IMG/VR virus record: IMGVR_UViG_2896384573_000007
Location: 4,318-68,317 of that record
DNA: 64,000 bases
Strand: one strand, 5' to 3'
Source: a virus
Taxonomy: Duplodnaviria; Caudoviricetes
Position numbers and translations under genes: made by a program
Notes under the pieces: generated by a model
The model's input: the letters and a program-made list of their open reading frames with translations, nothing else
Told to the model about the DNA's origin: nothing
Database searches by the model: none
Shown: positions 30,225 through 54,133 of the stretch, one piece after another
Layout of the letters: each line of letters starts with the position of its first letter
How positions within the stretch are numbered: position 1 is the first letter of the stretch

Positions 30225-31787
30225 TCAAGCCACCAGCGAGTCCAGTTCCAGCTCGGTTTCCGTCTGCAGGCGGCAGGCCGCCACCGCCATCACCGCCGCG
30301 ACGCCCGCGTCGATCCTGCCGAACGACTTTGCCTTGGTCAGCTTGCGGTTCCCGGCGGCGTCGCGGTCGACCACGGCGTTGGACACGCACCAGCGCAGCA
30401 CCGGGTGGCCGCCGTGGACGAGCCGACCCTGGACGGCAAGTTCCTCGAAGATCTCGATGGCGGGCGACATCGACTTGTAGCCTTGGCCGAATGGCGACAG
30501 CGGCACCAGCACGCCCATGCGGGCGAACGACTGCTTCAGGACGTCGATGCGCCACTGGTCGTAGTTGACCTTGGCAAACAGGATCTTCGACGAAAGCTCG
30601 CCGACGTCGGCGGCGAGGAAGTCGTAGTCAAGCACCTGTCCCGGCACCGGGATCAGGAACGAGCGGTCGGCCCAAACGCGGTAGGGCGCGCGGTCGCGCA
30701 GGCCCCGTTCGTCGATCGTATCGCCTGGCGTCCAGATGCGCGGGAACAGGTGGACGTTGCCGTGGTCGTCGTTGACCGCCATGACCAGCGCCGAGAGGTC
30801 GGTGCGCGCCGACAGGTCGAGCCCGCCATAGACCGGCCTGCCATCGTAGAGCAGATCCTCGACGAGTTCCCGGTTGCCGCGGATCCAGACGTTCGGCGAC
30901 AGGAAAGGGGCCTTCGCCTGGACGCGCTGGTTCAGGTAGAGGTTTCTTAGGCGCGATTCCAGCGACGGCACCTTTTCGGCCCGCTTCATGGCGGCGCGGA
31001 ATTCGTCGATGTCGCGGTAGTCGCCGAGCGCCGGGTTTGCCTTCTTCCATTGTTTTTCGTCGAGCAGGTCGCAGCCGGGGTCGGCGGCGTAGAGGTGGAC
31101 GGTAAAGGTGTCGTCCTCGATCTCGCCCGCGCGGATCTTCAGCCCGTAGTCTATCAGCTCCGACAGGATATGGTCGTCGGCCGGCGCTTGCGTCGAGATG
31201 ATCATCATCAACGGCTCGACCTGCGCGCCGAGCGAGGTCATAAGCACGTCGTAGAGCGCGGCGTTCTTCGCCTGCGCCAGTTCATCATAGACGACCAGGT
31301 CGAGGCCTTCGCCGAACTGGCCACCGGCTTCCGCCGCGATGGCCGAGTAGAACGAGCCGTCGCGGCGGTGGGTGACGTGCTTGGTCGACTCCACCAGCTT
31401 CAGCCGCTTCATCAGCACCGGGTTCATGCGGATCATCTTGGCGACGAAGCGGTAGACGATCCCGGCCTGCTTGCGGGTGGTGGCGGCGGACGCGATCACC
31501 GAGTTCGGCCTTTTGAACGGGCCGACCAGGTGCAGGAGGATGATGACCGCAGCGAGCAGCGTCTTGCCGTTGCGCCTGCCGACCGAAAAGATCGCCTGCC
31601 TGCGCTTGCGCAGCCCGTCCTTGTCGCGGGGATTGTAGACGTCGCGGATGAATTCGATCTGCGGCTTCGACAGCCTGAGCGGCTTTCCGACGTGTTTCCC
31701 CGCCGGGACGATCAGCGAATGTGCGAACGCAATCGCCCTGCCGGACGGCAGGTTCCAGTCCTTTTTCGGCACGTTGCGGCGCTGCAT
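30225..31787 (-). CDS. terL: Terminase large subunit (HK97/cos-type); start may be GTG 31859
   Basis: Walker A GRRNGKT, Walker B VVYDE, nuclease GLDLS and KSFGRIDAGVA. Confidence 0.95.
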   Translation of the reverse strand: MQRRNVPKKDWNLPSGRAIAFAHSLIVPAGKHVGKPLRLSKPQIEFIRDVYNPRDKDGLRKRRQAIFSVGRRNGKTLLAAVIILLHLVGPFKRPNSVIASAATTRKQAGIVYRFVAKMIRMNPVLMKRLKLVESTKHVTHRRDGSFYSAIAAEAGGQFGEGLDLVVYDELAQAKNAALYDVLMTSLGAQVEPLMMIISTQAPADDHILSELIDYGLKIRAGEIEDDTFTVHLYAADPGCDLLDEKQWKKANPALGDYRDIDEFRAAMKRAEKVPSLESRLRNLYLNQRVQAKAPFLSPNVWIRGNRELVEDLLYDGRPVYGGLDLSARTDLSALVMAVNDDHGNVHLFPRIWTPGDTIDERGLRDRAPYRVWADRSFLIPVPGQVLDYDFLAADVGELSSKILFAKVNYDQWRIDVLKQSFARMGVLVPLSPFGQGYKSMSPAIEIFEELAVQGRLVHGGHPVLRWCVSNAVVDRDAAGNRKLTKAKSFGRIDAGVAAVMAVAACRLQTETELELDSLVA

Positions 31788-31900
31788 GAGCTGGCGCAAT
31801 TCGGGCGTCAGGCTGCTCGCAGATTTATCAGCGAGTGCCGCTTGCTTGTCGATAAACACAATCCTATGTCCACAACCGCAACACGAAACGGAGACTTCAA

Positions 31901-32470
31901 ATGATTGTTTTTGAAATCGTAGGTGGTGGCGACGAGTCCAACGAGACCCACGACACCGCACCAGATTCCATCGTCGATTTCGCCGAGGCGGAGGACGCCG
32001 TGAAGGGCAAGCGCCGCAAGAGCGGCACGCTGCGCTTCCCGCCGCCGGTCGACCTCGACGAGGTCATCCCGCCCTTGCCCGACGGCATCAAGGCGATCCC
32101 CGGCGGCATCGAGTATCCCGACGGCACGCAGGTCACCGAGGCGACCGCCAGCGCCGAGGAGGCGAAGCCCGCCAAGCAGCGCAAGGCGAAAGAGCCGAAG
32201 GAACCGAAGGCGAAGAAGGCGAAGGCCGAAAAGCCCGCCAAGGCACCGCGCGAAAACAAGACCGACACGCTGGTGCTGATGCTCTTGGACGACAAGGGTG
32301 CCACCACCGAGGAGGTCGCCAAGGCCTTCGGCTGGCTGGCGCACACGACCCGCGCCGCCATCTCGACGCTGCCGAAGAAGAAACAGTTCCCCGAGGGCCA
32401 CGTCCTTTCCAAGGAGAAGGTCGAGGAGCGCGGTCTGGTCTACCGCATCACGCCGGTCAAGGCCGAATAG
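31901..32470 (+). CDS. DUF3489-domain protein with Lys/Ala-rich linker
   Basis: C-terminal KTDTLVLML...GAT.EEVA...GWLAHTTRAAIS winged helix. Confidence 0.75.
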   Translation: MIVFEIVGGGDESNETHDTAPDSIVDFAEAEDAVKGKRRKSGTLRFPPPVDLDEVIPPLPDGIKAIPGGIEYPDGTQVTEATASAEEAKPAKQRKAKEPKEPKAKKAKAEKPAKAPRENKTDTLVLMLLDDKGATTEEVAKAFGWLAHTTRAAISTLPKKKQFPEGHVLSKEKVEERGLVYRITPVKAE

Positions 32471-33690: not shown

Positions 33691-34146
33691 TCACTCTCCC
33701 AAGAGCAGCGTTATCGGGTCGGTGTCCCAGCGTTCGGGGTGTGCCAGGCGCGCCCGACCGGCGGGCGTCAGGCCGAGTTCTGCGCCCGACTGCATCATCA
33801 ACTTGGCGGCATTGTTCATGACCACGAGCAGGGGATTGCGGATCGGCCCATGCGGGCTCTGGACGAGCAGGCCGGTCATGTCGAGCTTCTCGCGCGCCTG
33901 CCGGAACGTTGCCCAGTTCACCGCGAACGTCTCCAAAGCCGCTTCATCCGCCCGCGTCAGCACCCCCTCCGGCAACGAACTGACGGTGTCCAGCCATAAC
34001 TCCTCGGCCAGCTCGTTCATCCCCGGAGGCATCCTCGGATGCCCCAAACCTTGCGGTTCGTCGTGAATCCGGTGCACGCCGACCTTCGAGCGGTTGCCCT
34101 CGGCGATTTTGATGATCTTCGACTTCGGTTTCGGTCCTCTCGGCAT
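33691..34146 (-). CDS. terS: Terminase small subunit (P27 family)
   Basis: MPRGPKPK...EGN start; NPL...ELGLTPAGR motif. Confidence 0.9.
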   Translation of the reverse strand: MPRGPKPKSKIIKIAEGNRSKVGVHRIHDEPQGLGHPRMPPGMNELAEELWLDTVSSLPEGVLTRADEAALETFAVNWATFRQAREKLDMTGLLVQSPHGPIRNPLLVVMNNAAKLMMQSGAELGLTPAGRARLAHPERWDTDPITLLLGE

Positions 34147-34223
34147 TTTTGGAAGCCTTTTCAGGATGATCGATCGAAAAGATAATCCAAAAAATAAATA
34201 GCCGGAAATTGTAACGAGGCTAC

Positions 34224-34275
34224 CGCCGCGCCTCCGGGCTCCGTGCGGGGGCTTTTGGGGCCTCCCCCCGCCGGA
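34224..34275. repeat. Putative cos region, copy 1 (about 80 bp upstream of terS)
   Basis: GC-rich CGCCGCGCCT core; 23 bp (34229-34251) identical to 40712-40734; canonical position for cos in P27-terS phages. Confidence 0.55.
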
Positions 34276-34473
34276 GGGTACCCGCCCGCAGCGCCTTGCA
34301 ACGGTTGGCTTCGTCGATCGTGACGCGCGCACACTTCTTCATAGTAGGTAACAGAGGACGCTCCGGAATCTGGTTCGCCGAGTCCCCGACCGATGCCGGC
34401 GCAAACGCCAGCGGAAATGACCTTGCCGCACATCCTGCACCTCAGTAGTGTCCGCAACTATAGGGGGACTCGG

Positions 34474-35421
34474 ATGTCGTATTTCTCGGACACGAAGGGC
34501 TGCACGCTCGTCAACAACTTCACACTGCACTATCCCGACAAGCTGTCGAGCGGGCGTCCGTTTACGAGCACTTGCGTGCCGCAAGGAATATGGGTGGATC
34601 TCCACGACATCGAGATCATCCATACGATCGACTGGCAGCACGGGGGATTTGAGAAGCAGGCTCCCGGAAACCCCGAATTCAAGGTGCAGTCCAGGCTGAT
34701 TGCAAAAGGCACTTTCAAGGACACGATCACGGTCTTCCGTGTGCCTGAAGGGCGCGTCGCTTCCTTCCGGGAGCTCGACGTGCAGATCAAGCCGATCAAG
34801 AAGGGCGCGGTCGGTGGCGAAACGAAGTCCACCACGCTCGACGGTGTGGGCTACTCCGGCATGACCTCAAGGACAGTCCCTGACGAAGGGCTGATGGCAG
34901 GCGATCCAGGCACGCTGCTCTACGTAGATCCGACCAAGGATGAATGGCCTTCTGATCACGACAAACCGTACCTGCAGCTTGAGGGGTACATCGACGAGGC
35001 GGAGTTCGCGAGCCTGCTGCAGCGCATGGCCATGACGTCCGCCCCGATCCGCAGCGGCGTTCTGCGTATGGTGGCCGAACTCTTTCAGCATGAGGTCGAT
35101 GCAAGCCTGTCGGAGCCATATCACCCGCACGATTACGGCATGCTCCTTCGCGGAGACGACAAGACCTACGGCATCACCCGGGCGCGGTCCGAGACTGTGT
35201 CGGTGGCGTATAAGCCCATCATGCTGCAGCCTGAACCGGACGAATACGATGCAGCGGTAGATGAAGCGGCCGCGCCGATATCGATGGACAACCTGCCGCC
35301 GGATATCGTCTCCAAGATAAGCAAGGACATGCTCGTCTCCATCGAGAAACGCCTGAAGACCATCTCCACGGTGCTTTGCTTCGGGCTGGGGATCATCGTC
35401 GCCGTGCTGCTCTTGAGGTAA
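34474..35421 (+). CDS. Unknown protein with C-terminal TM anchor (315 aa)
   Basis: AGGGGGA RBS before ATG 34474; ends ISTVLCFGLGIIVAVLLLR. Confidence 0.7.
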   Translation: MSYFSDTKGCTLVNNFTLHYPDKLSSGRPFTSTCVPQGIWVDLHDIEIIHTIDWQHGGFEKQAPGNPEFKVQSRLIAKGTFKDTITVFRVPEGRVASFRELDVQIKPIKKGAVGGETKSTTLDGVGYSGMTSRTVPDEGLMAGDPGTLLYVDPTKDEWPSDHDKPYLQLEGYIDEAEFASLLQRMAMTSAPIRSGVLRMVAELFQHEVDASLSEPYHPHDYGMLLRGDDKTYGITRARSETVSVAYKPIMLQPEPDEYDAAVDEAAAPISMDNLPPDIVSKISKDMLVSIEKRLKTISTVLCFGLGIIVAVLLLR

Positions 35422-35424
35422 CCC

Positions 35425-35667
35425 ATGAAGGACAAGATTGCATCCGCTGCGCAGAATCTCGCGTGTGCAGCGAAGGCCAGGCCAGAAGAAAGCAAGTGGT
35501 CGCTCATCGGCGCGGCTGTGGGTGCGATCCTCGGCCTCATCATTGGGGGCATTGGTGTCACGGCCATGGGTGGAGCGATTGGTGTGCCTGCGACAGTCGT
35601 CTTGGCTGTGGTCGGCGGCGTGTTGGGCAATAGGTACGGTATCTCGAAGGATAGGCCAGTTCGATGA
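35425..35667 (+). CDS. Glycine-zipper small membrane protein (80 aa)
   Basis: GAAVGAILGLIIGGIG...GGAIG...VGGVLG GxxxG repeats. Confidence 0.7.
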   Translation: MKDKIASAAQNLACAAKARPEESKWSLIGAAVGAILGLIIGGIGVTAMGGAIGVPATVVLAVVGGVLGNRYGISKDRPVR

Positions 35668-36569
35668 AATTGCGCATGAGAACCGCCCGGGGACTCTTCA
35701 TTGGATTTCTGGCGCTAGGATCCGGCACGGGGGCTGTAGTCGCAATCGACGTGCCGCCGAATGCCCACCTGGATTACACCGGCCGATCATGGGACTGCGA
35801 CAGAGGGTTCAGGAGAAGCGGCAACGGCTGTGCGGCAGTCCAGCTCCCCGCGAATGCTGAGCTCGACTATACAGGTCACTCATGGACATGTAACCGCGGA
35901 TTTCGGCAGCAGGGGCAAATCTGTATCGTGGTCACTATTCCTCAGGACGCCCAGCTCGATTACACGGGGCATTCTTGGACGTGCAATCGAGGCTTCCGGC
36001 AGCAGGCGCAGAGCTGCGTCCCGGTTCAAATCCCTTCAAACGCATCGCTCGACTACACGGGGCACTCATGGACATGTAACCGCGGTTTCTTTCAGCAAGG
36101 TCAGGTTTGCGTGCCGGTGAGCCTGCCGGAGAACGCCGAGCTGGATTTCAACGGGCACAGTTGGAAATGCAGCTATGGCTTCCGGCGGGTCGGCAATGCA
36201 TGCGAGACGTTCAAGGTGCCAGAAAATGCGCACATCGATTTTACTGGCAACAATTTCGCGTGTGTCCAGAACTACAAACGCGTCGGCGACAAGTGCGAGC
36301 CGATGACACAGGCCGAGATCCAGTACCAGAACTACCTGATGATGCTTGCGATGCAGTGTGGCGGCACGAAGTCGGTTGAGGTCGAAGGAACCTGTGGCAG
36401 CGACAGCGTCAGCGGCGAGATCGACGTGTGCCAAGGATCAAAGGAAGCATCTGGAGAGCTGGAGTTCGACAATGGTCTGACGACCAAGTTCGAGGGCACA
36501 TGGACGTCGGCCGACGAGTTCGAAGGCACTGACGGCTTCGGGAATAGCTGCGATCTGGAGGTGGATTGA
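35664..36569 (+). CDS. Exported Cys-rich repeat protein
   Basis: Signal-like N-terminus; six 31-aa P.NA.LDYTGHSW.C.RGF...G..C units; Cys-containing C-terminal domain. Confidence 0.8.
   Translation: MKLRMRTARGLFIGFLALGSGTGAVVAIDVPPNAHLDYTGRSWDCDRGFRRSGNGCAAVQLPANAELDYTGHSWTCNRGFRQQGQICIVVTIPQDAQLDYTGHSWTCNRGFRQQAQSCVPVQIPSNASLDYTGHSWTCNRGFFQQGQVCVPVSLPENAELDFNGHSWKCSYGFRRVGNACETFKVPENAHIDFTGNNFACVQNYKRVGDKCEPMTQAEIQYQNYLMMLAMQCGGTKSVEVEGTCGSDSVSGEIDVCQGSKEASGELEFDNGLTTKFEGTWTSADEFEGTDGFGNSCDLEVD
35754..36311 (+). repeat. Six diverged 93-bp coding repeats
   Basis: Unit starts at 35754 and 35847, 93-bp period. Confidence 0.85.
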
Positions 36570-37078
36570 TGGCCGACAACATCATTCCGTTCAGAAAGCG
36601 CAAAAGGCCTAAACCGATCAAGCGGCCCAAACAAAATCCGTCATCTCCGAAAGCTTTAATCGCCGTTCTAGGTGTCGCTGCGGCGCTGGCATTCGTTTAC
36701 ACGGATTTCTCGCTCCCAGGTTCGACTGCACAGGCCTCATCGTTCGCTCGTTGCGGCATCATCAAGAGAGACTGTGTGGTCGACGGTGACACCCTCTACG
36801 TCGCCAGCGAGAAAATCCGCGTCGCCGACATCGATACGCCAGAGATCAGCGAGCCGAAGTGTGCATCGGAAAAAGCTCTCGGCGAGCGGGCGACTGAGCG
36901 GTTCATTGAGCTCGTCAATTTGGGACCATTCGAACTGCGCGCATGGGAAGGGCGGGACGAAGACCAATACGGCAGGAAATTGCGTGTACTCGTGCGCGAC
37001 GGGCGCAGCCTCGGTGACCTGCTGGTCGAGGAGGGACTTGCGCGCACCTGGTCAGGTCGTAGGGAGCCGTGGTGTTGA
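36569..37078 (+). CDS. Membrane-anchored thermonuclease (SNase family)
   Basis: VDGDTL, IRVADIDTPE, DQYGR, LVEEGLAR; N-terminal TM segment. Confidence 0.9.
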   Translation: MADNIIPFRKRKRPKPIKRPKQNPSSPKALIAVLGVAAALAFVYTDFSLPGSTAQASSFARCGIIKRDCVVDGDTLYVASEKIRVADIDTPEISEPKCASEKALGERATERFIELVNLGPFELRAWEGRDEDQYGRKLRVLVRDGRSLGDLLVEEGLARTWSGRREPWC

Positions 37079-37397
37079 TACCTCGCCCGGCGGCAAAGAC
37101 TGGCCGATCACGATGCCGCACTGTATACCGTCGCATCATCCGCCCCCTCTCGTATCCCCTTGAATGACATTGCCGTAGACGACTCCAACGACAGCCAGGA
37201 CGGCGAGAGGGCCAGCGAGCCAGCTATACAGTTTGGACACGGAGGGTGTATCGTACTCCTGATGGTTGAATTAAGGGGGTCTGAAATGGAGAAGACAGCA
37301 GCAGCAGTCGCTGTATGGACACCCAACGACTGGTCTCAGATTCAGGCTTCAAGCGCTTGCCTCGAGTTCGAGACATTCTTCAGATCGAGCGTGTCGA

Positions 37398-38000
37398 TCA
37401 TAACTTCTTGAATTCGTAATCCGCCCATCGAAGAGATTTCCGGATTTCCGAAGCTTTCACGCCCTTCAGGGTTTCTTGGACAGCGGCAAGAGCTACCGAG
37501 AAGCTCGTTTTCAGCATCTCTGCCGCTTCCTGTTTTCTCCCGTCCTTCTCGTACATCCGGACGACTTTGTATTTCGCTAGACGTGACAGAGCATCGGCTT
37601 CGATCCTGCCACCTGCATCCACCTTCACGGTGAATAGCATCTCCCAATCTGTGATGTTGCCATAAGCCTGGTGCCGCAGGTTCTTCCTGCGCTGTTCGAT
37701 GTCGACGCAAGTGCCGACTTTCAGAAGCTTCGCCGACCTGGATCCAGCGATGTAAATGTAGCCCTCTGTGTTATGGCGCTTCTGGTAGCCCAACTTGGCT
37801 GTGTCGCACTGTGCGCAATGACCTGACCGTGTCCGGAGACGGTGACCTTTCTCCTTGCAGGGCGTCCCGATGACAACCGTCTGACCTGCTGCCCGAACGC
37901 CAGCCTTCCATGCGGCGGATGATTGTCCGCGCCCATCGTATACGTCCGATGTAGTAAGGCTCTGAGACTTCAGAAATTCAAGCTCGTCCTTCGTCAACAT
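37398..38000 (-). CDS. T5orf172/GIY-YIG-like protein with N-terminal Cys/His knuckle
   Basis: GYIYIAGS...LKVG.C.DIEQR; C....HRLRTRSGHCAQC. Confidence 0.7.
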   Translation of the reverse strand: MLTKDELEFLKSQSLTTSDVYDGRGQSSAAWKAGVRAAGQTVVIGTPCKEKGHRLRTRSGHCAQCDTAKLGYQKRHNTEGYIYIAGSRSAKLLKVGTCVDIEQRRKNLRHQAYGNITDWEMLFTVKVDAGGRIEADALSRLAKYKVVRMYEKDGRKQEAAEMLKTSFSVALAAVQETLKGVKASEIRKSLRWADYEFKKL

Positions 38001-38007
38001 GACGGGA

Positions 38008-38403
38008 TCACTCTCCGATGGTGCTACCGTCCAACTCGTGTTCCCGCAGCACGCATGTTCCGTATTGAATCTTGGATGGGTCAGCCAAAACGGGCTGGCT
38101 GGCTTGACCAGTCTTCAAATTCACGACGAACCTTGGTTGCAAATCCGGACGGTTGGACCACTGCGCTTCCATCCTCTCGTTGGTGCGTACGAGTATCGTT
38201 TTTGTCGCCGCGAGGGAAGTTTTCCGATACTTGCCGCCTGCTTGCCGGAGTGCGTCGCCGTCAATTAGCCAACTCTCAGAACGGAAACCAGTGACGTGCT
38301 TAGGATCGGGGTAACGGCAGAACATGAATGTCGCAGCCTCGGCGTTTGCCTGCGACACGGTAATCAAAGTGCCCATGATCGCAACAGCGATTGTCCTCTT
38401 CAT
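38008..38403 (-). CDS. Putative exported protein (131 aa)
   Basis: MKRTIAVAIMGTLITVSQANA signal peptide. Confidence 0.55.
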   Translation of the reverse strand: MKRTIAVAIMGTLITVSQANAEAATFMFCRYPDPKHVTGFRSESWLIDGDALRQAGGKYRKTSLAATKTILVRTNERMEAQWSNRPDLQPRFVVNLKTGQASQPVLADPSKIQYGTCVLREHELDGSTIGE

Positions 38404-38542
38404 GCCTCACCCTCTATCGACAATACGCCCGTTGATGTACATCCAAAAGTTGGGCACGACAATTCGCCAACAATCTCTAGCCATTGATTTACTTTGTTGA
38501 TCGAAGATAGTTGCAAGCAAGGGACTCAGGGGATCTGGAAAT

Positions 38543-38992
38543 ATGCAACCACAGCCCATCGATGCAGCCAAACACGCCGAAATGATCGGCAAGCCAGTCT
38601 TTGCAATTCTTCTCGTCGTGATCTATGGGATTTATCGCATCGTCCAGGAGGGCATATGGCCTGCAGGCTGGCCGAATGGCACGATCCTAGCTGCGGGCGG
38701 CATCCTGTCAGCGGTCGCGATATTCGCATACATGCGCACAATCGAAGGCGGCAGAGGGCGGAGCTTGGGCAAGGCGCTGTCGGCGTTCGGCGGACTGCTC
38801 CCATATGCGTACTCGCTGTACGTGATATTCCACGTCGGGCTCTGGTCCCTAGTTCAGCTTTTTACCGTCGGATTCGCGGTAACGGGATTGCTCGTGGGTG
38901 TCGTCGGCATTCTGCTCGGATACCGAATCCTAAAGACATTTTATGACATCACAGAACTTGGGAATGCTCGGCTCGCGTCCGAGAAAGCGTGA
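38543..38992 (+). CDS. Multi-pass membrane protein (149 aa)
   Basis: About four hydrophobic segments. Confidence 0.65.
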   Translation: MQPQPIDAAKHAEMIGKPVFAILLVVIYGIYRIVQEGIWPAGWPNGTILAAGGILSAVAIFAYMRTIEGGRGRSLGKALSAFGGLLPYAYSLYVIFHVGLWSLVQLFTVGFAVTGLLVGVVGILLGYRILKTFYDITELGNARLASEKA

Positions 38993-39104
38993 ACTAATCG
39001 CTGCGCTCGACAATCTTGCCGTCGTTCGTGAAGTGACGCCTCGACCCCGTCTCGTAGGAACCGATAGCGGCTGTCGCAATCGGCACCTGGTTGGCGCGCA
39101 GAAT

Positions 39105-40607
39105 TCATCGCATTCGGAAGCGATTCTTGAGTGCCAGCGCCAGCAGGAAGAGCAGAACGGCGCCACCGAGCGCCTCGACTGCGCTGATCGCACGAAAAAT
39201 CCAATTGAACTGGAGGTGGTTGAGGGCATCTATAGCTTCCCTTCGCATTGGCAGGAAGGAAAGCAGGTTTAGCAAGGTCAATTGTGCCGCCGATCCGCAC
39301 GGGAGAGGGATTCCAGCCATGCCGGATGAAGGAGAAATCTTGTTGGAGACGGGGAGCAGGGCCAGCGCGACGAAGCCGATGGCTGCGAGTGCGCCCATGC
39401 CCACAAGGGGGCGCATGAAGCTCGAGCCGTAACCGCTCAGCTTCTCATACGCGAAATTGAGTAGCCAGCCGAACGATAACGGCTTCATGAGCGCGCGGCG
39501 CACCCGCAGCTCTTGGCGGAAGAAAAACTGCTCATCCTCATGTTTCTTCAGCCGCTCCATTTCCAGCTTGAGTCGTTCATAAGCATAGAGGTTGGCCTGT
39601 TGATCCGTCTCCTCGTTGAAGGTCGCCGGCCACGTGACGCCGTCGAGTTCGGTAGCCTCGTGTAGCACCGCGCCCCGGAAATCGGGGACGCACTTCACGA
39701 ATGTTGCGCCCCGGAAGCGGCTACCGGCCTCGAACCTAACGTTGGTAAAGGAGACCGGAGCCCCACGCCATAAGGTCCGATCGAACCACGCACGGTCCTT
39801 GAAGGTGGTTCCGCGGAACTCGGCGCTCGCACCGAAGACGGCATCGATAAAGACTGAACCGCCGTGGAAGATGGCGTTGATGAAGTCTACGTCACCTGTG
39901 AATTCTGCATGGGCGAAATCCGCTGACTCGGAAAATTTGGGTTCGACGAAGCGGACCGGGCCGAGCCGGGCACTCCCGAAATACACATGGCTGTTGAAAT
40001 ACATGTGCGAAAACACAGTATCGCCGGAAACCGTGCATTCGCGCATACTGAACTCGCCACGGACCTCGCCGGCAAACCCCAGCTGTCCTTCGACTTCCAA
40101 GTTGTCGAGATTGACATAATTAAACGTTTCCCCTCGAAAATTTCCGCGAACCTTTATCTTCGCGGAGACAAGTGACAGATCTTCGTCGAAGCTGGCCTTG
40201 GTGGCGTCGATGCCTCGCTCGAAGACGGACCTGTCGAAACGGGCGCCTGCGGGGAACTTGTAGCCTCCCAGGAACAACCTCCGCTCGAAAATCGTGTCGG
40301 AGAAATCCGCCAGCCGGGTGGAATCGGGAAGCTCGGCCTTGGCATTGCCCATACGCGACCGGAGTAGCGACGTGAGTTCGCCACGGATCGCTCGAAAAGT
40401 GACCAAGTCGGGATCGGCGGCGCTCGTCGATCCGCTGTTGCCGGCGTCCAGCCATCGCTGCCATTCGTTACGGTTGCGATCGAGCAGGTCACCGAGTTTT
40501 CCGGGTTCGGGCTCTCCATGCAAAGTCGCGAGACAGTAGTACACGTTCTCGTTCGCGCTCTTCAGCGCGCGCTCTGGCTCAGAATCATTGTCCGTCACTC
40601 TGCCCAT
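39105..40607 (-). CDS. Pentapeptide-repeat protein with C-terminal membrane domain (500 aa)
   Basis: Repeating F..A.F units; GYGSSFMRPL plus TM helices; GGAGGAGG RBS before ATG 40607. Confidence 0.8.
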   Translation of the reverse strand: MGRVTDNDSEPERALKSANENVYYCLATLHGEPEPGKLGDLLDRNRNEWQRWLDAGNSGSTSAADPDLVTFRAIRGELTSLLRSRMGNAKAELPDSTRLADFSDTIFERRLFLGGYKFPAGARFDRSVFERGIDATKASFDEDLSLVSAKIKVRGNFRGETFNYVNLDNLEVEGQLGFAGEVRGEFSMRECTVSGDTVFSHMYFNSHVYFGSARLGPVRFVEPKFSESADFAHAEFTGDVDFINAIFHGGSVFIDAVFGASAEFRGTTFKDRAWFDRTLWRGAPVSFTNVRFEAGSRFRGATFVKCVPDFRGAVLHEATELDGVTWPATFNEETDQQANLYAYERLKLEMERLKKHEDEQFFFRQELRVRRALMKPLSFGWLLNFAYEKLSGYGSSFMRPLVGMGALAAIGFVALALLPVSNKISPSSGMAGIPLPCGSAAQLTLLNLLSFLPMRREAIDALNHLQFNWIFRAISAVEALGGAVLLFLLALALKNRFRMR

Positions 40608-40694
40608 CCTCCTCCTCCTCGACCTCACCCATAATACCTGGCGTGAATTCGCTTCCAAGCACCCCTGACTGACGGCACCTCTTCGTGACAGCCT

Positions 40695-40760
40695 CGCCGC
40701 GCCTGTATGTCCGCCTCCGGGCTCCGTGCGGGGGACTTTGGGACCGCCTCCCCGCCGGGA
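40695..40760. repeat. Second, altered copy of the cos-like sequence
   Basis: CGCCGCGCCT at 40695, then a 12-nt insert, then the 23-bp identity to 34229-34251 and further partial similarity. Confidence 0.7.
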
Positions 40761-41198
40761 TGCCGCCCCCAACGCTGACCGGCGCGGTTACGGGGACGGC
40801 TCCGCTCCGAGGCTGGGCGGGCAAGTCTCAAAGCATCAAGCTTCGTCCGGTCGCTCGATTCTTAATGAAATCAGCGCAGACTCCAACGGAGCGGTTTGTC
40901 GACATCGAGCGTCTTCCCTGAAGCGCGGTAGAAGCGAGCCGCGAGCGCCGGAAGGTCATCCGCAGTCGGCACTTCGATCGAAGCAATCGCGCGGCCATGG
41001 TCATGACCGAGAGCGACAACCCCAAGGACGCTACGTTCGCGGAGGGGTGAGCCCGGGGAGAAGCGACCAATCCGCTCATCTGATCGGGTGGTTCACATTT
41101 CTGCACAAAACATTTTCGGCCTCCTGATGCTGTGGCTGTCTTGTGAAAGCGGGGTAAGGCGGACATAAAGGACTCGGTACACGCATCGGGGGAACCGC

Positions 41199-43030
<1,832 letters not shown>

Positions 43031-43034
<4 letters not shown>

Positions 43035-44395
43035 GCTTCACTCAGCATTCCAGGTACAAGAGCAGCAACGTTGATGGACTCGAAGAGGTGCCAGAGCATT
43101 GGCGCTTGTCGCGCCTTGGTTTTGCCAGTTGGGTACGCGCGCGTCTTGGATGGAAGGGATTGAAGGCCGACGAGTATGTGGACGATGGCTATGTATTTCT
43201 CGCCACGCCCAACATCAAGGGCAGGGAAATAGACTTCGAGAATGTAAACTACATCGATCAGATCCGTTACGATGAATCACCTGAGATCGCTCTCGGGCTG
43301 GGAGATGTTCTCCTTGCAAAAGACGGATCAACCTTAGGCACTGTCAATGTCGTCCGTTGCTTGCCTAGACCCGCGACAGTCAATAGCTCGATTGCGGTGA
43401 TTACGCCGCGCGCTGATCTCAGCGGCATGTACTTGTTCTATTTGTTTCAGAGTTCGTACATGCAAGCGACCATCCAAAGAATTAAAGGGGGAATGGGCGT
43501 TCCCCATTTATTTCAGGAGGACCTCAACAAGTTTCACATTCCACTTCCCCCGCTGCCCGAGCAAATCGCCATTGCCTCCTTTCTTGACCGCGAGACCGGT
43601 AAGATCGATGCGCTGGTGGAGGAGCAGAAGCGGTTGATCGAACTGCTGAAGGAAAAGCGCCAGGCCGTCATCTCCCAGGCGGTCACCAAGGGTCTCAACT
43701 CAGAGAGCCCAATGAAAGTCACGCGTATTGATTGGCTCCAACAAGTGCCACGACACTGGTCTTTATCGCGCCTTGGTTTTGCCACTTGGGTACGAGCACG
43801 TCTTGGATGGAAGGGGCTGAAGGCCGATGAGTATGTGAACGAGGGCTATGTATTTCTCGCCACGCCCAATATCAAAGGCCGGGAAATTGATTTCGACAAT
43901 GTGAACTACATCGATCAATCTCGTTATGAGGAATCTCCTGAGATTGCTCTCCAGGTGGGAGACGTTCTTCTAGCAAAAGACGGATCAACGCTCGGGACTG
44001 TCAACGTCGTTCGCTGTTTGCCGCGCCCAGCGACAGTCAACAGCTCGATTGCCGTAATTACGCCTGGCGACGGGCTCTCCGGGGTGTACTTGTTCTATCT
44101 GTTCCAAAGTTCGTACATGCAGGCGACCATCCAAAGAATTAAGGGGGGAATGGGCGTCCCACATCTATTCCAGGAAGACCTCAATAAATTCCACATCCCC
44201 CTTCCTCCCCTACCCGAGCAAGTCGCTATTGCTGACTTCCTTGACCGCGAGACAGAGAAACTTGACCTCTTGGCGGCACAAGTCGAGACGGCGATTGCAA
44301 AGCTCCAGGAGCGTCGCGCCGCGTTAATTTCCGCAGCAGTTAACGGCAAGATCGATGTCCGAAACCTTGTCGGAGCCCGGGAGGCTGCTGAATGA
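43031..44395 (+). CDS. hsdS: Type I R-M specificity subunit with near-identical TRDs
   Basis: Two TRD + IPLPPLPEQ conserved-region units; ends [15 protein letters not shown]. Confidence 0.95.
43100..44254 (+). repeat. Internal direct repeat in hsdS (43100-43597 vs 43757-44254)
   Basis: 166-aa units differ at 15 positions by manual alignment; 657-bp offset. Confidence 0.95.
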
Positions 44396-44928
44396 CCCCC
44401 TTTAAGTTGCCTGACGTTGCTGCAATGGATGCTGAGGGAAGGGCGAATCTGCGCAAGAACGCGGAGCGACTTCTCAGAAGTGGAAGCCCAACGGAGAAGT
44501 CTAGGGCGCAAGACGTTCTCGACGAACTGGCAAGAGTGATCGGCATCGAAGAGATGCAGCGTCGCGCCATTGTCGCCCGAATGGGCATCCCCGCACGGGT
44601 CGCCAATGCTTTCACTTCCATACCACCCACGGAAACCGAACAGGCCCTCCTTCAGGTGCTGCTCGACAATCCCGACCACACATCCCACGCTCTTAGCGCA
44701 AAATTGACCTGGGGTGGCCAGTCCTGGCACATGCATTTCGGCAAGATGTGCGAAAGGCGAGAGCACCTTCTCTGGGATGCCGAACCTGCGGTGACGCGCG
44801 ACGCAAACTTCTATTGCGGCATCCTCGCAAGCTACTCGGATCTCAGCCACGGCTTTACGATCAAGCCCGAGGTTGCCGAGGGTTTGGCAGCTATCGGAAT
44901 CAGACCGTCGAACAGGTACTCTCGATGA
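44392..44928 (+). CDS. Unknown protein between hsdS and hsdR, probable winged-helix C-terminal domain
   Basis: ATGA-coupled to both neighbours; TSHALSAKL..HFGKM...FTIKPEVAEGL. Confidence 0.7.
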   Translation: MTPFKLPDVAAMDAEGRANLRKNAERLLRSGSPTEKSRAQDVLDELARVIGIEEMQRRAIVARMGIPARVANAFTSIPPTETEQALLQVLLDNPDHTSHALSAKLTWGGQSWHMHFGKMCERREHLLWDAEPAVTRDANFYCGILASYSDLSHGFTIKPEVAEGLAAIGIRPSNRYSR

Positions 44929-47900
44929 GCCTCCACAAGGAAATCAGCTTCGAAGGAGAAATCTGCAGCCACCTCGCGCATCATGGCTGGCATTACGAGG
45001 ATGGCGACGCTGCCAAGTATGACCGCACCCGGGCGCTGTTTCCTGCCGATGTCGTGGCGTGGGTCCAGACTTCGCAGCCGAAGGCTTGGGAGACGCTGGC
45101 GAAGAACCACGGTTCCGCCGCCGAGACCATGCTGCTCGACCGCATCCGCAAGCAACTCGACGAGCGCGGGACCCTGGATGTGCTGCGCCACGGCGTCGAA
45201 CTGATCGGCCTCAGGGCTCCGCTGAAGCTCGCTGAGTTCAAGCCGGCCTTTGGGCTCAACGAGGAGATCCTCGCCCGGTACGACGCCAACCGGCTGCGTG
45301 TCGTACGGCAGGTACGTTACTCGAACAGCAACGAGAATTGCATCGACCTTGTCCTGTTCCTCAACGGGCTCCCTGTTTCGACTGTTGAGTTGAAGACGGA
45401 CTTCACCCAAAGCGTGCAGGACGCGGTGGACCAGTACAGGTTCGATCGGCATCCGAGCCCCAAGGGACAATCGCCTGAGGCGCTCCTGAGCTTCCCCAGC
45501 GGCGCCCTCGTCCACCTTGCAGTCAGCAATGCCGAAGTGATGATGGCGACGAAACTCGAAGGTGCCGACACCCGCTTCCTGCCGTTCAACAAGGGCAATG
45601 AGGGCGGCAAGGGCAACCCGCCCAACCCGAAGGGGCACCCGACCGCCTATCTCTGGGAGGAGGTCTGGGAGCGCCATTCCTGGCTGGAGATCCTGGGGCG
45701 CTACATCGTTGCCGCGAAGGACGCCAAGAAGAAGATCACGGGCCTGATCTTTCCGCGCTTCCATCAGCTAGATGCAAGCCGGAAGCTTCAAGCTGAGGTT
45801 CTCGCCGAGGGCGCAGGGGGCAAGTACCTGATCCAGCATTCGGCGGGATCGGGAAAGACCAACTCGATCGCATGGTCGGCGCATTTCCTTGCCGATCTCC
45901 ATGACGCGCAGCACAAGAAGATCTTCGACACCGTCATCGTCGTCTCCGACCGCAATGTGATTGACACCCAACTTCAGGAAGCGATCTTCAGCTTCGAGCG
46001 CACTACGGGCGTCGTCGAGACGATCACCGGTGAAGGCGGTGCCAAGAGCAGCAAACTTGCCGAAGCGCTTGCGGGAGGGAAAAAGATTGTCGTCTGCACC
46101 ATCCAGACCTTCCCATTCGCGCTGGAGGCGGTGCGGGAACTTGCTGCGACGCAGGGCAAAAAGTTCGCGGTAATCGCCGACGAGGCGCATTCAAGCCAGA
46201 CGGGTGAGACCGCATCGAAGCTGAAGCAGGTTCTCTCAGCCGAAGAACTCGCGGAACTCAGGGACGGTGGCGAGGTCAGCAGCGAAGACATTCTCGCGGC
46301 TCAGATGGCGGCTCGGGCGAGCGAAAGCGGCATCACCTATGTGGCGTTCACCGCGACCCCCAAGGGCAAGACGCTGGAGCTCTTTGGCCGCCGCCCGAAC
46401 CCGAGTGAACCGGCGAGCGAGACCAACAAGCCGCAGCCCTTCCACGTCTATTCCATGCGTCAGGCCATCGAAGAGGGCTTCATTCTCGACGTCCTGAGGA
46501 ATTACACGCCCTATGATCTCGCCTTCAAACTGGCCAACGCTGGTGGGGAGATGGACGACAAAGAGGTGGAGCGCAAGGAGGCGGTCAAGGCGCTGATGCG
46601 CTGGGTGCGGCTGCATCCCTACAATATCAGCCAGAAGGTCCAGATCGTCGTCGAGCATTACCGAGCGAACGTGCAGCCGCTGCTCGACGGCAAGGCGAAG
46701 GCTATGGTGGTCACCAGCAGCCGTGTCGAGGCCGTGCGGTGGCAGATCGCCATGCAGAAATACATCAAGGACCAGAAGTACTCCCTCGGCACCCTAGTCG
46801 CCTTCTCCGGGGAGGTCGATGACAAGGAAAGTGGACCTGACCCCTTCTCGGAGACCAGCAAGGAACTGAACGCGGGGCTGAACGGGCGCGACATCCGCGA
46901 GGCCTTCAAGCTACCGGAATACCACGTGCTGCTGGTCGCCAACAAATTCCAGACCGGGTTCGATCAGCCCCTGCTGTGCGGCATGTATGTCGATCGCCGC
47001 TTGGCGGGAATACAGGCCGTCCAGACGCTCTCCCGCCTCAACAGGGCCCATTCCGGCAAGGATACGACCTACGTCCTCGACTTCGTCAACAGCGGCGACG
47101 ACATCCTTAAGGCGTTTCAGACCTACTACGAGACGGCTGAACTCGCAGGGGTCACCGATCCCAACCTCGTGTTCGACCTCAGGGCGAAGCTGGACGCCGC
47201 CGGATACTATGACAGCTTCGAGGTTGATCGTGTCGTGAAGGCCGAACTCGATCCGCAATCGAAGCAGAGTGATCTTGTAGCCGCCATCATGCCTGTCGCG
47301 GATCGTCTGCTTAAGGCCTACAAGGCGGCACAGGAGCGCCGAACGGTTGCCCTGACGAAAGAGGATACCAAGGTGGCGAAGGATGCCCAGGACGAGATGG
47401 AGGCGCTTCTGCTCTTCCGCAGCGACATGGGCGCGTTTGTCCGGGTCTATGCCTTCCTGTCGCAGATCTTCGACTACGGCAACACCGACATCGAGAAGCG
47501 ATCGATCTTCTACAAGCGACTGACCCCGCTGCTCGACTTCGGTCGCGAACGGGACACTGTTGACGTCTCTCAGATCAAGCTGACGCATCACAAGCTTTCG
47601 ACCAAGGGGCCGCGCTCTCTTGCTCTCACGGGCGAAGCGTCCCCGTTGACGCCCTTCACGGCCCCTGGGTCAGGCTCGGTGCAGGACAAGGAGAAGGCGT
47701 TGCTCGCTGAGATCGTTGCGAGGGTGAACGACCTGTTCCAGGGTGAACTGACGGATGGCGACCAGGTCATCTATGTGAACAGCGTGTTGAAGGGGAAGCT
47801 GCTGGAGTCGGAAACGCTCGTCCAGCAAGCCGAACACAACACGAAGGAGCAGTTTGCGAGTTCGCCGGATCTCTCGAAGGCCATTCTCGACGCGATCATG

Positions 47901-48035
47901 GACGCCTTCGAAGCCCATTCGGTGATGAGCAAGCAGGCCCTCGACTCGCCGAAGATCCGCGAAGGCATCAAGGACATCCTGCTTGGACCGGGGCAGCTTT
48001 GGGAGGGGCTCAGGAAGAAGGCAGAGAACGCGTAG
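44925..48035 (+). CDS. hsdR: Type I R-M restriction subunit
   Basis: IDLVLFLNGLP..TVELK nuclease, HSAGSGKT, IADEAH, FTATPK; start MSLHKEISFE at 44925. Confidence 0.97.
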   Translation: MSLHKEISFEGEICSHLAHHGWHYEDGDAAKYDRTRALFPADVVAWVQTSQPKAWETLAKNHGSAAETMLLDRIRKQLDERGTLDVLRHGVELIGLRAPLKLAEFKPAFGLNEEILARYDANRLRVVRQVRYSNSNENCIDLVLFLNGLPVSTVELKTDFTQSVQDAVDQYRFDRHPSPKGQSPEALLSFPSGALVHLAVSNAEVMMATKLEGADTRFLPFNKGNEGGKGNPPNPKGHPTAYLWEEVWERHSWLEILGRYIVAAKDAKKKITGLIFPRFHQLDASRKLQAEVLAEGAGGKYLIQHSAGSGKTNSIAWSAHFLADLHDAQHKKIFDTVIVVSDRNVIDTQLQEAIFSFERTTGVVETITGEGGAKSSKLAEALAGGKKIVVCTIQTFPFALEAVRELAATQGKKFAVIADEAHSSQTGETASKLKQVLSAEELAELRDGGEVSSEDILAAQMAARASESGITYVAFTATPKGKTLELFGRRPNPSEPASETNKPQPFHVYSMRQAIEEGFILDVLRNYTPYDLAFKLANAGGEMDDKEVERKEAVKALMRWVRLHPYNISQKVQIVVEHYRANVQPLLDGKAKAMVVTSSRVEAVRWQIAMQKYIKDQKYSLGTLVAFSGEVDDKESGPDPFSETSKELNAGLNGRDIREAFKLPEYHVLLVANKFQTGFDQPLLCGMYVDRRLAGIQAVQTLSRLNRAHSGKDTTYVLDFVNSGDDILKAFQTYYETAELAGVTDPNLVFDLRAKLDAAGYYDSFEVDRVVKAELDPQSKQSDLVAAIMPVADRLLKAYKAAQERRTVALTKEDTKVAKDAQDEMEALLLFRSDMGAFVRVYAFLSQIFDYGNTDIEKRSIFYKRLTPLLDFGRERDTVDVSQIKLTHHKLSTKGPRSLALTGEASPLTPFTAPGSGSVQDKEKALLAEIVARVNDLFQGELTDGDQVIYVNSVLKGKLLESETLVQQAEHNTKEQFASSPDLSKAILDAIMDAFEAHSVMSKQALDSPKIREGIKDILLGPGQLWEGLRKKAENA

Positions 48036-48237: not shown

Positions 48238-48636
48238 CTACCGTCTCTTCCCGAGCACGTAGTCGCGTTTCAATTGCGCGGCAAGGTGTGGGTCGGCAAC
48301 GGAATGGCTATTTACTGCAGTTATTGCCTCCTGCTGGGTGAGTCGTGTCCATGGGTGGGCTGGGTTCAAAGGTAGGCCGTCCTCGTCGCAGGCGCCCGTC
48401 AGACGTCCCTGATCGTAAGCATGCGTCAGCCTGGAATGGTGCTGGTGGCAGAGCGCCTGCAGGTTGGACCAGTGTAGCCGGAGGTGGGGCGCGGCGCGCA
48501 CGGTAACGATGTGATCGACGTGCTCGGTGGGCCTACCGCAGCCCTTCACTTGGCAGTAGGGATGCGCCTTCTTGAACCGGGCGGCGAGGCGGTGCCAGTC
48601 GGCGTCGTAGGGGATGTTGCGGGGTCGCTTGCGCAT
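48238..48636 (-). CDS. HNH endonuclease (HK97 gp74-like packaging accessory)
   Basis: C....C...HVDHI...NLQALC..HHS..T. Confidence 0.9.
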   Translation of the reverse strand: MRKRPRNIPYDADWHRLAARFKKAHPYCQVKGCGRPTEHVDHIVTVRAAPHLRLHWSNLQALCHQHHSRLTHAYDQGRLTGACDEDGLPLNPAHPWTRLTQQEAITAVNSHSVADPHLAAQLKRDYVLGKRR

Positions 48637-49334: not shown

Positions 49335-50573
49335 CTACGCTTCGGTGGTCGCCGAAGGCCGCTTTTCGTTGGCGACGAAAACGCCGTTCTTCAACCTTGA
49401 CTTGCTGCCGAGATATTCCTGTTCGAACAGCAGGCCTGACTTCTTCCAGCACTTGACGATGCGGTCGGCGCGCTGCTCCGAGACTTCGAGGCCCTTGGCG
49501 ATGGGGATGCCGACGTAGCGGTCCTTCGATTGCGGCGCGAAGGAATAACGCTCGTATTCCAGCCCCTTAGCGTTCTGGATGACGTCGAGCACGCCGTCGA
49601 TCAGGTCGTAACCGATGTTCTCGAACAGACCGGGCGGCTGCCACGGCACGAGGATGCCCACCTTGTCGGACTCGGGATAGTCGGGCGGGTTTTCGTTTTC
49701 GAGGTCGACGGAGATGAATTTGAACCAGTTGGCCTGGCCCGGATCCGGCAGGTAGTTACCCTTGGCATGGTCGACGCGGACGATGTGGCGCGGGCTGTCG
49801 ACGCCGAGCGACGCGGCCATGTCGGCGGTCATGTTGGTGATGGTGTGCGCCAGCCGGACGAGCCCGCCGAGCGACGAGCCGCCGCGCGATGCGTCGATGT
49901 CGCCGGGGGTGACGACGCCCTTGCGGACGTGGTGCGTCAGCAGGCCTGCGGCGTCCAGGCGGCGGATCATGCCGCGAATGACGGCGGCTGCGGCCTTGAC
50001 CTGGCCGTTGTCGTTTTCCGCGCCTGACCAGAGCTCGATGAACGGGTCGAGCATGAGCACCTCGACGCCGTATTGGCCCATCAGCCGCTCCAGCTGCTTC
50101 AGGTTATCGGTGGCGTGGATGATGCCCTTGCGGTCGACCTGCGCGAGGATGGGCGGGTCGTCGATATGGGCGACGTGGATCTGACGCTCCTCATTCCTGC
50201 CGAAGCCGTAGTGCTTGGCGATGGCGTGCATGCGCCGGTCCAGCTCGTCGCGGTCCTCCTCGACGGTGAGGATGCCGACGCGCTTCGGCGGGCCGACGAT
50301 CTTGAACGGGCCATAGGCGAGACCGGCGGCGAGGTGCCATGCGATGACGAGACCGAAGATGGACTTGCCAGCGCCGCCTGCGGCGATCAGCGACGTCACC
50401 TGCTGCCTGAGCAAGAGCCCGCGCATGATCCATGGCCTGACCGGCAGCGTCTTGGGATCGCGCAGCCGATAGGGCCTGACGCGCACCGGCAGCCGCACGA
50501 CGTTCTCGGCATCGTCGCCGGAGGGGCGGTCGCCGGGGAAGTCGTCGTCGTCCCTCACGGCTCGCTCCTCCAT
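49335..50573 (-). CDS. AAA_25 / RepA-like SF4 helicase-type ATPase
   Basis: AAGGAGKS Walker A, VEED, LDPF..END, THHVRK, SRGGSSL. Confidence 0.85.
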   Translation of the reverse strand: MEERAVRDDDDFPGDRPSGDDAENVVRLPVRVRPYRLRDPKTLPVRPWIMRGLLLRQQVTSLIAAGGAGKSIFGLVIAWHLAAGLAYGPFKIVGPPKRVGILTVEEDRDELDRRMHAIAKHYGFGRNEERQIHVAHIDDPPILAQVDRKGIIHATDNLKQLERLMGQYGVEVLMLDPFIELWSGAENDNGQVKAAAAVIRGMIRRLDAAGLLTHHVRKGVVTPGDIDASRGGSSLGGLVRLAHTITNMTADMAASLGVDSPRHIVRVDHAKGNYLPDPGQANWFKFISVDLENENPPDYPESDKVGILVPWQPPGLFENIGYDLIDGVLDVIQNAKGLEYERYSFAPQSKDRYVGIPIAKGLEVSEQRADRIVKCWKKSGLLFEQEYLGSKSRLKNGVFVANEKRPSATTEA

Positions 50574-53758: not shown

Positions 53759-54133
53759 ATGAAAGGGGCCAGCATGCCTACGAGGGCCAAGACTCGGTCT
53801 GACACTCTTTTTTTCAAGGAATGGCGCATCCATGCCGGGTTCTCGCAAGAGGATGTCGGCGAGAAACTTGGTGTCACTGCGTCAACGGTTTCGAGGATCG
53901 AGACCGGAAAACGCGATTTCCTCGGTTCCTACCTGATCAGATTCGCCGAGATCTGCAAATGCCCGTCACCCGGCGATCCGGTCTCGCGACCGCCGTCGCA
54001 GATCTCCATCGACGCGCTGTTTCGCGGCAATGAGGAGGACCGCAAACGAGCCGAGGCGATCCTGCTTGCGGCGCTCCGCCAGTCGGTCTCGAAGCTCAAC
54101 GACGCAGAAAATGGCGATGATGAGAAGAGCTAG
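53759..54133 (+). CDS. CI-like XRE repressor without a peptidase domain (start may be 53774)
   Basis: FSQEDVGEKLGVTASTVSRIETGKR HTH; divergent from cro. Confidence 0.85.
   Translation: MKGASMPTRAKTRSDTLFFKEWRIHAGFSQEDVGEKLGVTASTVSRIETGKRDFLGSYLIRFAEICKCPSPGDPVSRPPSQISIDALFRGNEEDRKRAEAILLAALRQSVSKLNDAENGDDEKS

Follow-up and report, generated by a model that had tools for sequence, protein, structure and literature searches.

Two copies of one sequence element flank a 6.5 kb block of cargo genes in a rhizobial prophage of ~69 kb, which is read on the minus strand and lies in a host genome of 7.7 Mb. When aligned with the mapped cos site of phiE125 and with the first bases of contigs from three related phages, the element is recognizable as a cos right arm, ~90 nt with a conserved G-tract just upstream of the nick. 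Copy 1 is most likely part of a complete working cos (34147–34320) next to the small terminase gene terS. Copy 2 appears to be inactive as a cos. We favor, without great confidence, the reading that a terminase-cut right genome end was here joined illegitimately to foreign DNA, which would have left a scar of cargo capture at a cos-adjacent hotspot rather than a packaging switch. Coordinates are those of the window, the whole 64,000-nucleotide stretch of DNA that was analyzed.

The repeated element and its setting

The genes that define the setting are as follows.

30225–31961, minus strand: terL, large terminase (PF03354 and PF20441)
33691–34146, minus strand: terS, P27-family small terminase, 151 aa (PF05119, PHROG 83, TIGR01558)
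48238–48636, minus strand: HNH endonuclease, terminase partner (weak PF01844 and homology to the HNH of relatives)
62813–64000, plus strand: prophage integrase (PF00589)

The terS product scores 53.9 bits against NCBIfam TIGR01558 (cut-off 45.6), and its true start is 34146, which is M63 of the long ORF. The HNH product scores 20.1 bits against PF01844, below the cut-off of 21.4. As predicted, HNH and terS are 14 kb apart (14.1 kb, with HNH ending at 48238). Homology to the relatives ends at the HNH stop codon. The prophage att core, located by a repeat and tRNA search, is 16 nt of a tRNA-Met 3′ end and lies 4.6 kb before the window start and 84 nt past the window end. The related phages are 40–53 kb in size, so the ~69 kb prophage may no longer be packageable.

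The original prediction described a 23-mer direct repeat with copies 6483 bp apart. The repeat is exact, occurring on the same strand at 34229–34251 and 40712–40734, and no such match arose in shuffled sequence (0/100 shuffles). In the whole 7.7 Mb genome the 23-mer has these two copies only, even with three mismatches allowed, which ruled out a genome-wide REP-like repeat. The further partial similarity that had been predicted runs on rightwards (plus strand) for 41 nt at 88%. A local alignment of the copies matches in 55/67 columns (82% identity) and scores 69, where shuffled sequences average 20.4 (sd 1.9). The copies share a nearly identical block of 23–32 nt and their upstream halves have diverged. 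In these halves, copies 1 and 2 differ from the relatives at different positions, which points to two lineages. The repeat had no real matches in 300 family genomes, and chance matches only in 185,000 species genomes and IMG/VR. A tRNA fragment or att site was considered and rejected, because the window contains no tRNA and the 6.5 kb block no recombinase.

Both copies lie 83–105 nt upstream of a minus-strand start codon (copy 1 at 83 nt from that of terS, where about 80 bp had been predicted), as would be expected if a regulatory element (a late promoter, a terminator, or a small RNA) had been duplicated so as to stand before each of the two genes. We regard this as extremely improbable. Folds of the element are no better than those of shuffled sequence (z −0.5 to +0.75) and there is no Rfam match, and on these two results a structured RNA or terminator was rejected. 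The hairpin is not kept in relatives, and the gene g7 next to copy 2 has its own promoter-like site in donor-derived flanking DNA.

The predicted cos site at copy 1

Three adjoining features make up the predicted cos.

34147–34218, minus strand: cos left arm, cosB-like (contig starts of related phages and the record starts of phiE125, phi644-2, and HK97)
34219–34228, minus strand: predicted 10-nt 3′ cohesive end, reading CGGCGGTAGC on the top strand of the phage (same place as the overhang of phiE125)
34229–34320, minus strand: element E copy 1, cos right arm (homology to the HNH-terS intergenic element of relatives and phiE125 architecture)

In the related loci L045, L046, and L065–L070, HNH homologues (70–73% identical) are found directly upstream of terS, the two being separated by ~230–280 bp of intergenic sequence in which no cargo gene is annotated. 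The adjacency of HNH and terS that was predicted to be the normal state is seen in relatives. Element E copy 1 is homologous to the single element located between HNH and terS in these loci and in G401. Its G-tract is at 34264–34269 and its end is the predicted bottom-strand nick, 34229|34228. The next 10 nt (34219–34228) occupy the position of the phiE125 overhang CGCCCGCTTC; a Sinorhizobium meliloti relative has CGCCCGTAGT at this position. The left arm fills the space between the predicted left genome end, which reads CTCGTT..., and the start of terS.

Contig ends and mapped sites were both used to place the genome ends. Contigs from different samples, belonging to three related phages (L071, L073, and L059/L060/L061), start at the homologous base, and one circular assembly (G402) reads through it. 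Pattern searches for further contigs that span the cos junction or end at the right end gave the same contigs only, and an HNH-based scan gave no right-end contigs. The phiE125, phi644-2, and HK97 records open with a like sequence 45–50 nt before terS (49 by annotated CDS starts). In the phiE125 record a G-tract, then ~30 nt of further sequence, then the 10-nt overhang come before a left end that opens with GTCG. The cos layout in the prophage matches this mapped-site architecture and agrees with the contig starts of the three related phages, so that the repeat belongs to a cos region, as had been predicted. The exact nick positions are predictions from phiE125/HK97 homology and contig ends, and the 10-nt overhang length is borrowed from distant relatives (terS is 31–37% identical to those of phiE125 and phi644-2). 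Both of these phages have 10-nt 3′ overhangs, experimentally mapped in phiE125 (PMC2920897), and a 10-nt 3′ overhang was also experimentally mapped in HK97 (PMC9410871).

The Burkholderia phages phiE125 and phi644-2, HK97, and this prophage all have a P27-family terS and a PF03354/PF20441 terL. They also have in common a G-tract ~40–55 nt before the nick (predicted here) and a left end of G/C-T-C-G, followed by an A/T-rich stretch, 45–70 nt before terS. In the known phages HNH sits at the right genome end, whereas here 14 kb of cargo splits HNH from cos. The prophage further differs from phiE125 and phi644-2 in the low identity of its terS, in its extra right-arm-only copy, and in that its ends are predicted.

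Copy 2 and the cargo

Between the complete cos and HNH lie the cargo genes and the second copy of the element.

34474–37078, plus strand: g1 (315 aa, C-terminal TM), an 80-aa glycine-zipper membrane peptide, g2, and g3 (hydropathy, Pfam, PHROG)
37398–38992, g4 and g5 on the minus strand and g6 on the plus strand: g4, g5, and g6 (PF10544, hydropathy)
39082–40711, minus strand: pentapeptide-repeat membrane protein module, g7 with its own 5′ flank (PF13576, Sinorhizobium fredii homology)
40712–40835 (right end approximate), minus strand: element E copy 2, right arm only (homology to copy 1 and relatives)
41199–48035, plus strand: type I restriction-modification cargo (Pfam N6_Mtase/HsdM_N, Methylase_S, HSDR_N/ResIII)

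The g2 product has a signal peptide and 16 Cys, and g3 encodes a membrane-anchored SNase-like nuclease (PF00565, PHROG 452). The g1-g2-SNase module is also found in lambda-like Sinorhizobium phages (L050–L053). A T5orf172 domain (PF10544) is present in g4, a signal peptide in g5, and 4 TM in g6. PADLOC gave no matches for g4–g6 and no recognized defense system in the 6.5 kb block. The g7 gene occupies 39105–40607, and a promoter scan placed the promoter-like site in its flank at 40658–40631. Beyond copy 2 are hsdM (41199–43034), hsdS (43031–44395), and hsdR (44748–48035). On its composition, a 131-aa ORF at 40828–41223 was dismissed as spurious. Plasmid and phage collections yielded nothing that closely matches the cargo at the DNA level.

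The homology of copy 2 to copy 1 stops exactly at 40712, which corresponds to 34229 at the predicted bottom-strand nick and, in copy 1, lies 10 nt upstream of the predicted left end. Copy 2 is without the 10-nt stagger and without the whole left arm. Its G-tract is degenerate, while a G6–9 tract is kept in every relative. A functional duplicated cos would have both nicks, the stagger, and the terS-proximal arm, and copy 2 does not have this set. On its other side, faint similarity to the ancestral intergenic region continues in colinear order to ~40835. From 40711 on comes the DNA that flanks the pentapeptide gene on its 5′ side, with 91% identity to the S. fredii chromosome. The pentapeptide module as a whole aligns over 1646 nt, at 90.8% identity, with a non-phage S. 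fredii chromosomal locus (L047), and this homology begins exactly at the copy 2 junction. The junction is ambiguous by 2 nt, as a CG is common to arm and donor. In front of the pentapeptide gene of S. fredii, a search for a degenerate arm gave nothing significant. The 12 nt that had been read as an insert in copy 2 (40700–40711) are present, but they belong to the DNA natively found 5′ of the pentapeptide gene, as is seen in its S. fredii homologue. Copy 2 would not have been silenced by an insert; instead its right arm is cut off at the predicted nick and fused to unrelated DNA. As a separate observation, a 10-nt identity across the nick (34233–34224) recurs 7 nt inside the donor side (40704–40695), and joining of a cos end does not explain it.

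The original prediction treated both copies as alternative cos sites in a packaging-driven switch for gain and loss of the cassette. Right-arm sequence is present in both, and from the gene order packaging would reach copy 2 before the true cos. Such a switch is nonetheless very unlikely. Without the stagger, the left arm, and the conserved G-tract, a cut at copy 2 would give a non-cohesive right end, and viable progeny with or without the cassette are not expected to arise through terminase because copy 2 is a putative half site. Rare homologous deletion between the two short repeats is possible. The element occurs once in each of at least nine related prophages, where HNH adjoins terS or, in the closest relative, lies 3 kb from it. 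Thus the single-copy relatives and variable cargo looked for under the original prediction exist, but no two-copy relative was found in 34 related loci. A search for closer relatives through terS in genome contigs found none. Nor was a variant found with the restriction-modification genes but without the cassette, the hsdM product not being on record elsewhere.

The 6.5 kb block is discrete and is bounded by exact direct repeats, as it would be if the 23-bp repeats were the attL/attR cores of a small integrative element inserted site-specifically beside cos. This strikes us as far-fetched. No integrase or recombinase family was found in g1–g7 (Pfam, PHROGs, NCBIfam, PADLOC), the similarity extends ~45 nt on one side only and is phage cos sequence, and the block is a mosaic of modules that occur separately elsewhere.

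Proposed history and significance

Several observations underlie the reading that we favor, joining of a terminase-cut end to foreign DNA: the repeat is present and has no further copy in the genome, it is homologous to the cos region that relatives have in a single copy, and its copy 2 borders abruptly on donor-like DNA. Terminase would have cut cos to give a right genome end, with the overhang trimmed to the duplex end that corresponds to the copy 2 boundary. Illegitimate end joining would then have linked this end to a segment running from g7 to g1, itself followed by a compatible right arm and cos. The joining may have been direct, between two related phages, or the 6.5 kb fragment may have been circularized and then recombined in through the arm. 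We infer the end-joining step; end joining would be available because the host has Ku genes (at least three Ku proteins are encoded). Cos cleavage probably took part in the capture of the cassette, since the copy 2 junction falls on the predicted nick. That part of the predicted cos-to-cos capture is supported, but copy 2 itself appears not to be a cos. A single coincidence (about 5 in 250 positions) between junction and nick is suggestive but falls short of proof. We put the chances at about even that foreign DNA was joined here to a terminase-cut cos end and that the product has been kept intact to the base.

Homology in the arm could also have acted alone, through recombination between related phages or Campbell-type insertion of a circle that carried an arm-like segment, with no cleavage of cos and a coincidental match to the nick. 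The nearly identical block shared by the two copies, whose upstream halves are diverged, could host a crossover, the phage encodes a YqaJ-type exonuclease, and homology to G401 starts at 34242, a mosaic boundary near cos. We find this account doubtful. Homologous exchange does not make an abrupt non-homologous junction, so an illegitimate junction is needed anyway, and the junction is 0–2 nt from the predicted nick.

Engineered tandem-cos lambda constructs and cos-bearing satellites (cos PICIs) have complete, cleavable cos sites. They share with this prophage more than one cos-derived sequence per packaging substrate, although the second one here is a predicted half site. An annotation lesson is that a repeated cos-like sequence is not necessarily a second packaging site.

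The accessory block between HNH and terS measures 0, 3, or 14 kb across the relatives and this prophage (14 kb here), and G401 has a different 3 kb cargo at this place. Content is variable and the conserved flanking genes are the same, as in a cos-adjacent cargo hotspot. Recombination of cos ends has been speculated for the hotspots of P2 and P4 (Rousset et al., 2022; PMC9122126). Those hotspots and this locus have in common a variable accessory block beside cos between conserved genes, which here includes a type I restriction-modification system. The phage family and host are different, and a sequence-level junction at the predicted nick is preserved here but not reported in that study (PMC9122126).

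Accessory and defense genes cluster beside cos in several temperate phage families, and their route of acquisition has only been guessed at. A half-cos scar ending at the predicted nick offers a testable model, cos cleavage followed by end joining, and a right arm without a left arm gives a search image for more capture events. If true, the locus would be direct sequence evidence for a proposed but undocumented route of cargo into the cos-adjacent hotspots of temperate phages, and the capture route would be open to experiment in a Ku-rich host.

Prophage layout and the repeated element

The window holds a prophage read on the minus strand. The repeated element has two copies in it, one on each side of a cassette of ~6.5 kb.

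Features of the prophage in the window
62813-64000: integrase
53759-54133, plus strand: cI-like repressor, with a GcrA-like gene
49335-50801: AAA_25 helicase
48238-48636: HNH gene
41199-48035, strand opposite to the prophage reading direction: type I restriction-modification (R-M) genes hsdM, hsdS and hsdR
40712 to ~40835: copy 2 of the repeat, between the R-M and accessory genes
34474-40607: seven or eight small accessory genes
34229-34320: copy 1 of the repeat, between the accessory genes and terS
33691-34146: P27-family terS
Between terS and terL: ParB-methylase
30225-31961: terL
After terL in prophage gene order: protease-capsid fusion, portal and collagen-like proteins

A 16 nt att core, the 3' end of tRNA-Met, lies 4.6 kb left of the window (L158:13402-13417) and recurs 84 nt past its right end. 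This pair gives an element of ~68.7 kb inserted at the tRNA-Met 3' end. Relatives measure 40-53 kb, and at ~69 kb the prophage may be over its own capsid capacity. The nearest protein homologues carry names that suggest a Sinorhizobium/Ensifer host. The left arm of the prophage carries an ATP-dependent DNA ligase gene (PF01068 and PF04679; L158:14889-15866) between the att site and the tail-fibre genes, and a MazF/PemK-type toxin gene (62475-62798) adjoins the integrase. A collagen-like gene downstream of the portal gene has tandem 99-nt repeats in nine overlapping copies (19846-20614). The tail/lysis region at 10000-15000 is low in GC (52-56% vs about 64%) and is probably another cargo block.

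The 23-mer noted in the original prediction is exact at 34229-34251 and 40712-40734. The partial similarity described to its right was confirmed and runs rightwards on the plus strand, with 55 identities in ~67 aligned columns (score 69 vs a shuffle mean of 20.4, sd 1.9). A dispersed repeat is ruled out, as the 23-mer has no further copy in the 7.7 Mb genome with up to 3 mismatches allowed. No comparable match to the element was found in 300 same-family genomes. When 185,000 species genomes plus IMG/VR were scanned for exact 20-mers, only three chance matches came up, all in unrelated high-GC bacteria.

The repeat as the right arm of cos

As judged from sequence comparison, the repeated element is the right arm of cos, i.e., the part upstream of the predicted terminase nicks, which bears out its predicted cos-like identity. 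Three concordant lines are contig ends, the phiE125 record and side-by-side layout. Contigs of three different related phages from different samples (L071; L073; L059/L060/L061), with terS 51-54% identical to that of the window, all have the homologous base as their first, 44, 51 and 62 nt upstream of terS. G402, a circular assembly of the L071 phage with a 29-nt terminal overlap, is continuous from HNH through that base. A common start together with this read-through is the pattern expected of a physical genome end. In phiE125 (terS 37% identical) the left end is of like sequence type, and the right end consists of a G-tract, ~30 nt and then a 10-nt 3' extension that was mapped experimentally (PMC2920897). 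The window's packaging module groups with the HK97/phiE125 type; the left ends of HK97 and phi644-2 are similar, and HK97 has cohesive ends with 10-nt 3' overhangs (PMC9410871). The window, the related prophage L045, the closest relative G401, G402 and phiE125 all have a tract of 6-9 G, ~30 nt, a 10-nt block and a left end in which (G/C)TCG comes first and an A/T-rich stretch next. An S. meliloti relative and phiE125 have the first six overhang bases in common. From this alignment we infer a top-strand nick between 34219 and 34218, a bottom-strand nick between 34229 and 34228, and thus an overhang at 34228-34219.

The HNH-to-cos interval and the copy 2 junction

The closest terS homologues (77-94% identical) are in S. 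meliloti, S. medicae and several isolate-derived IMG/VR prophages. In L045, L046, L065, L066, L068, L069, L070 and, more distantly related, L037, an intergenic sequence of 230-280 bp with exactly one homologue of the element lies between HNH and terS, which is the adjacency that had been taken as the normal state. In G401 (terS 94%) the HNH stop codon is separated from the element, present once and intact, by 3 kb of different cargo. On the HNH side of the window, homology to relatives reaches only as far as the HNH stop codon. Because cargo varies between 0, 3 and 14 kb, the HNH-to-cos interval is a cargo hotspot. The comparison of copy number and cargo suggested with the original prediction thus yielded single-copy relatives and variable cargo, but among about 34 loci a second copy occurs in the window only.

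All S. meliloti/S. medicae relatives have a conserved 24-codon hydrophobic ORF overlapping the HNH stop codon (L045:9773-9847). A type I R-M system, distant from that of the window (hsdM and hsdS 22-24% identical), lies on the other side of HNH, upstream, in G401 (L145; G401:C1:4500-12500). The related prophage G108 carries a second-terS fragment (residues 85-150; L041:7645-7847) ~2 kb upstream of its resident terS. The fragment is nearer to the window terS than to G108's own, adjoins an SNase gene, and represents a further recombination scar close to cos.

In phage orientation copy 2 follows copy 1 up to 40712 (= 34229) and diverges completely beyond. From 40711 down to 39082 the sequence is 90.8% identical to a chromosomal, non-phage S. 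fredii locus with the same pentapeptide-repeat gene plus its 5' flank. Therefore, what had been read as a 12-nt insert with a duplicated CGCCT is really the first bases of this native flank, which contains a promoter-like site for the gene. What derives from the arm in copy 2 stops, to within 2 nt, at the predicted bottom-strand nick, where the duplex of a cos-cut right end would be expected to stop after loss of the 3' overhang. The ancestral intergenic region has left weak colinear traces upstream of copy 2 as far as about 40835, including the end of the small 24-codon ORF, of which only the last codons seem left (near 40828-40840). These traces suggest entry of the R-M cargo between HNH and copy 2, the latter being the resident arm. 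The 10-nt string spanning the nick in copy 1, AGGCGCGGCG (34233-34224), is found again at 40704-40695, on the donor side and 7 nt in from the junction; the S. fredii sequence agrees with only 8/10 of its bases. The recurrence may have aided end synapsis, been microhomology used in joining, or be chance (roughly 0.002, estimated post hoc).

Origin of the cassette and consequences for packaging

The cassette is a mosaic that occurs once in the genome. Its genes g1, g2 and the SNase-like g3 form a module also present in unrelated lambda-like (Nu1/GpA) Sinorhizobium phages (L051:10001-14281; also L050, L052, L053), with a pentapeptide-repeat gene nearby, there on the opposite strand. The closest relative of g7 is in a chromosomal island. 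The products are mostly predicted membrane or exported proteins, and none of them matches a known defence family; the module with the pentapeptide gene may be an envelope-associated accessory system.

Under any model an illegitimate junction is needed, and it is located at the predicted nick (by chance, roughly 5 positions in a 250-nt intergenic region). Two histories are simplest. The cos-cut right end of an R-M-carrying phage could have been joined to a related phage's DNA, at a point upstream of a cassette that occupied the usual cargo slot, with the next downstream cos completing a packageable molecule. Alternatively, end joining could have circularised a 6.5 kb fragment that had a cos-cut right arm at its end, and the circle could then have entered the resident arm by recombination. 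Either would account for the direct repeat, the near-identity beside the nick and the divergence of the upstream halves, each of which resembles now one relative, now another along its length. At least three Ku genes are present in the host. The locus acts like the cos-adjacent hotspots of P2/P4, where cos ends were proposed, without sequence evidence, as recombination substrates (Rousset et al.; PMC9122126). None of the papers covered by a limited literature search described a capture junction marked by a right-arm-only cos copy.

Copy 2 has neither the stagger sequence nor a left arm, and no run longer than 4 is left in its broken G-tract (6-9 in every relative). On these features it should not act as a packaging site, because a cut there would give a right end unable to anneal to the left end. 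This argues against the switch between alternative cos sites that had been put forward for cassette gain and loss. Since packaging would reach copy 2 first and the true cos only later, a pseudo-site that still functioned would do harm, in keeping with the decayed G-tract. Loss of the cassette is plausible by one route: a crossover in the shared 23-32 nt block could remove it precisely. Such a deletion is a generic low-frequency event, not a packaging-driven switch.
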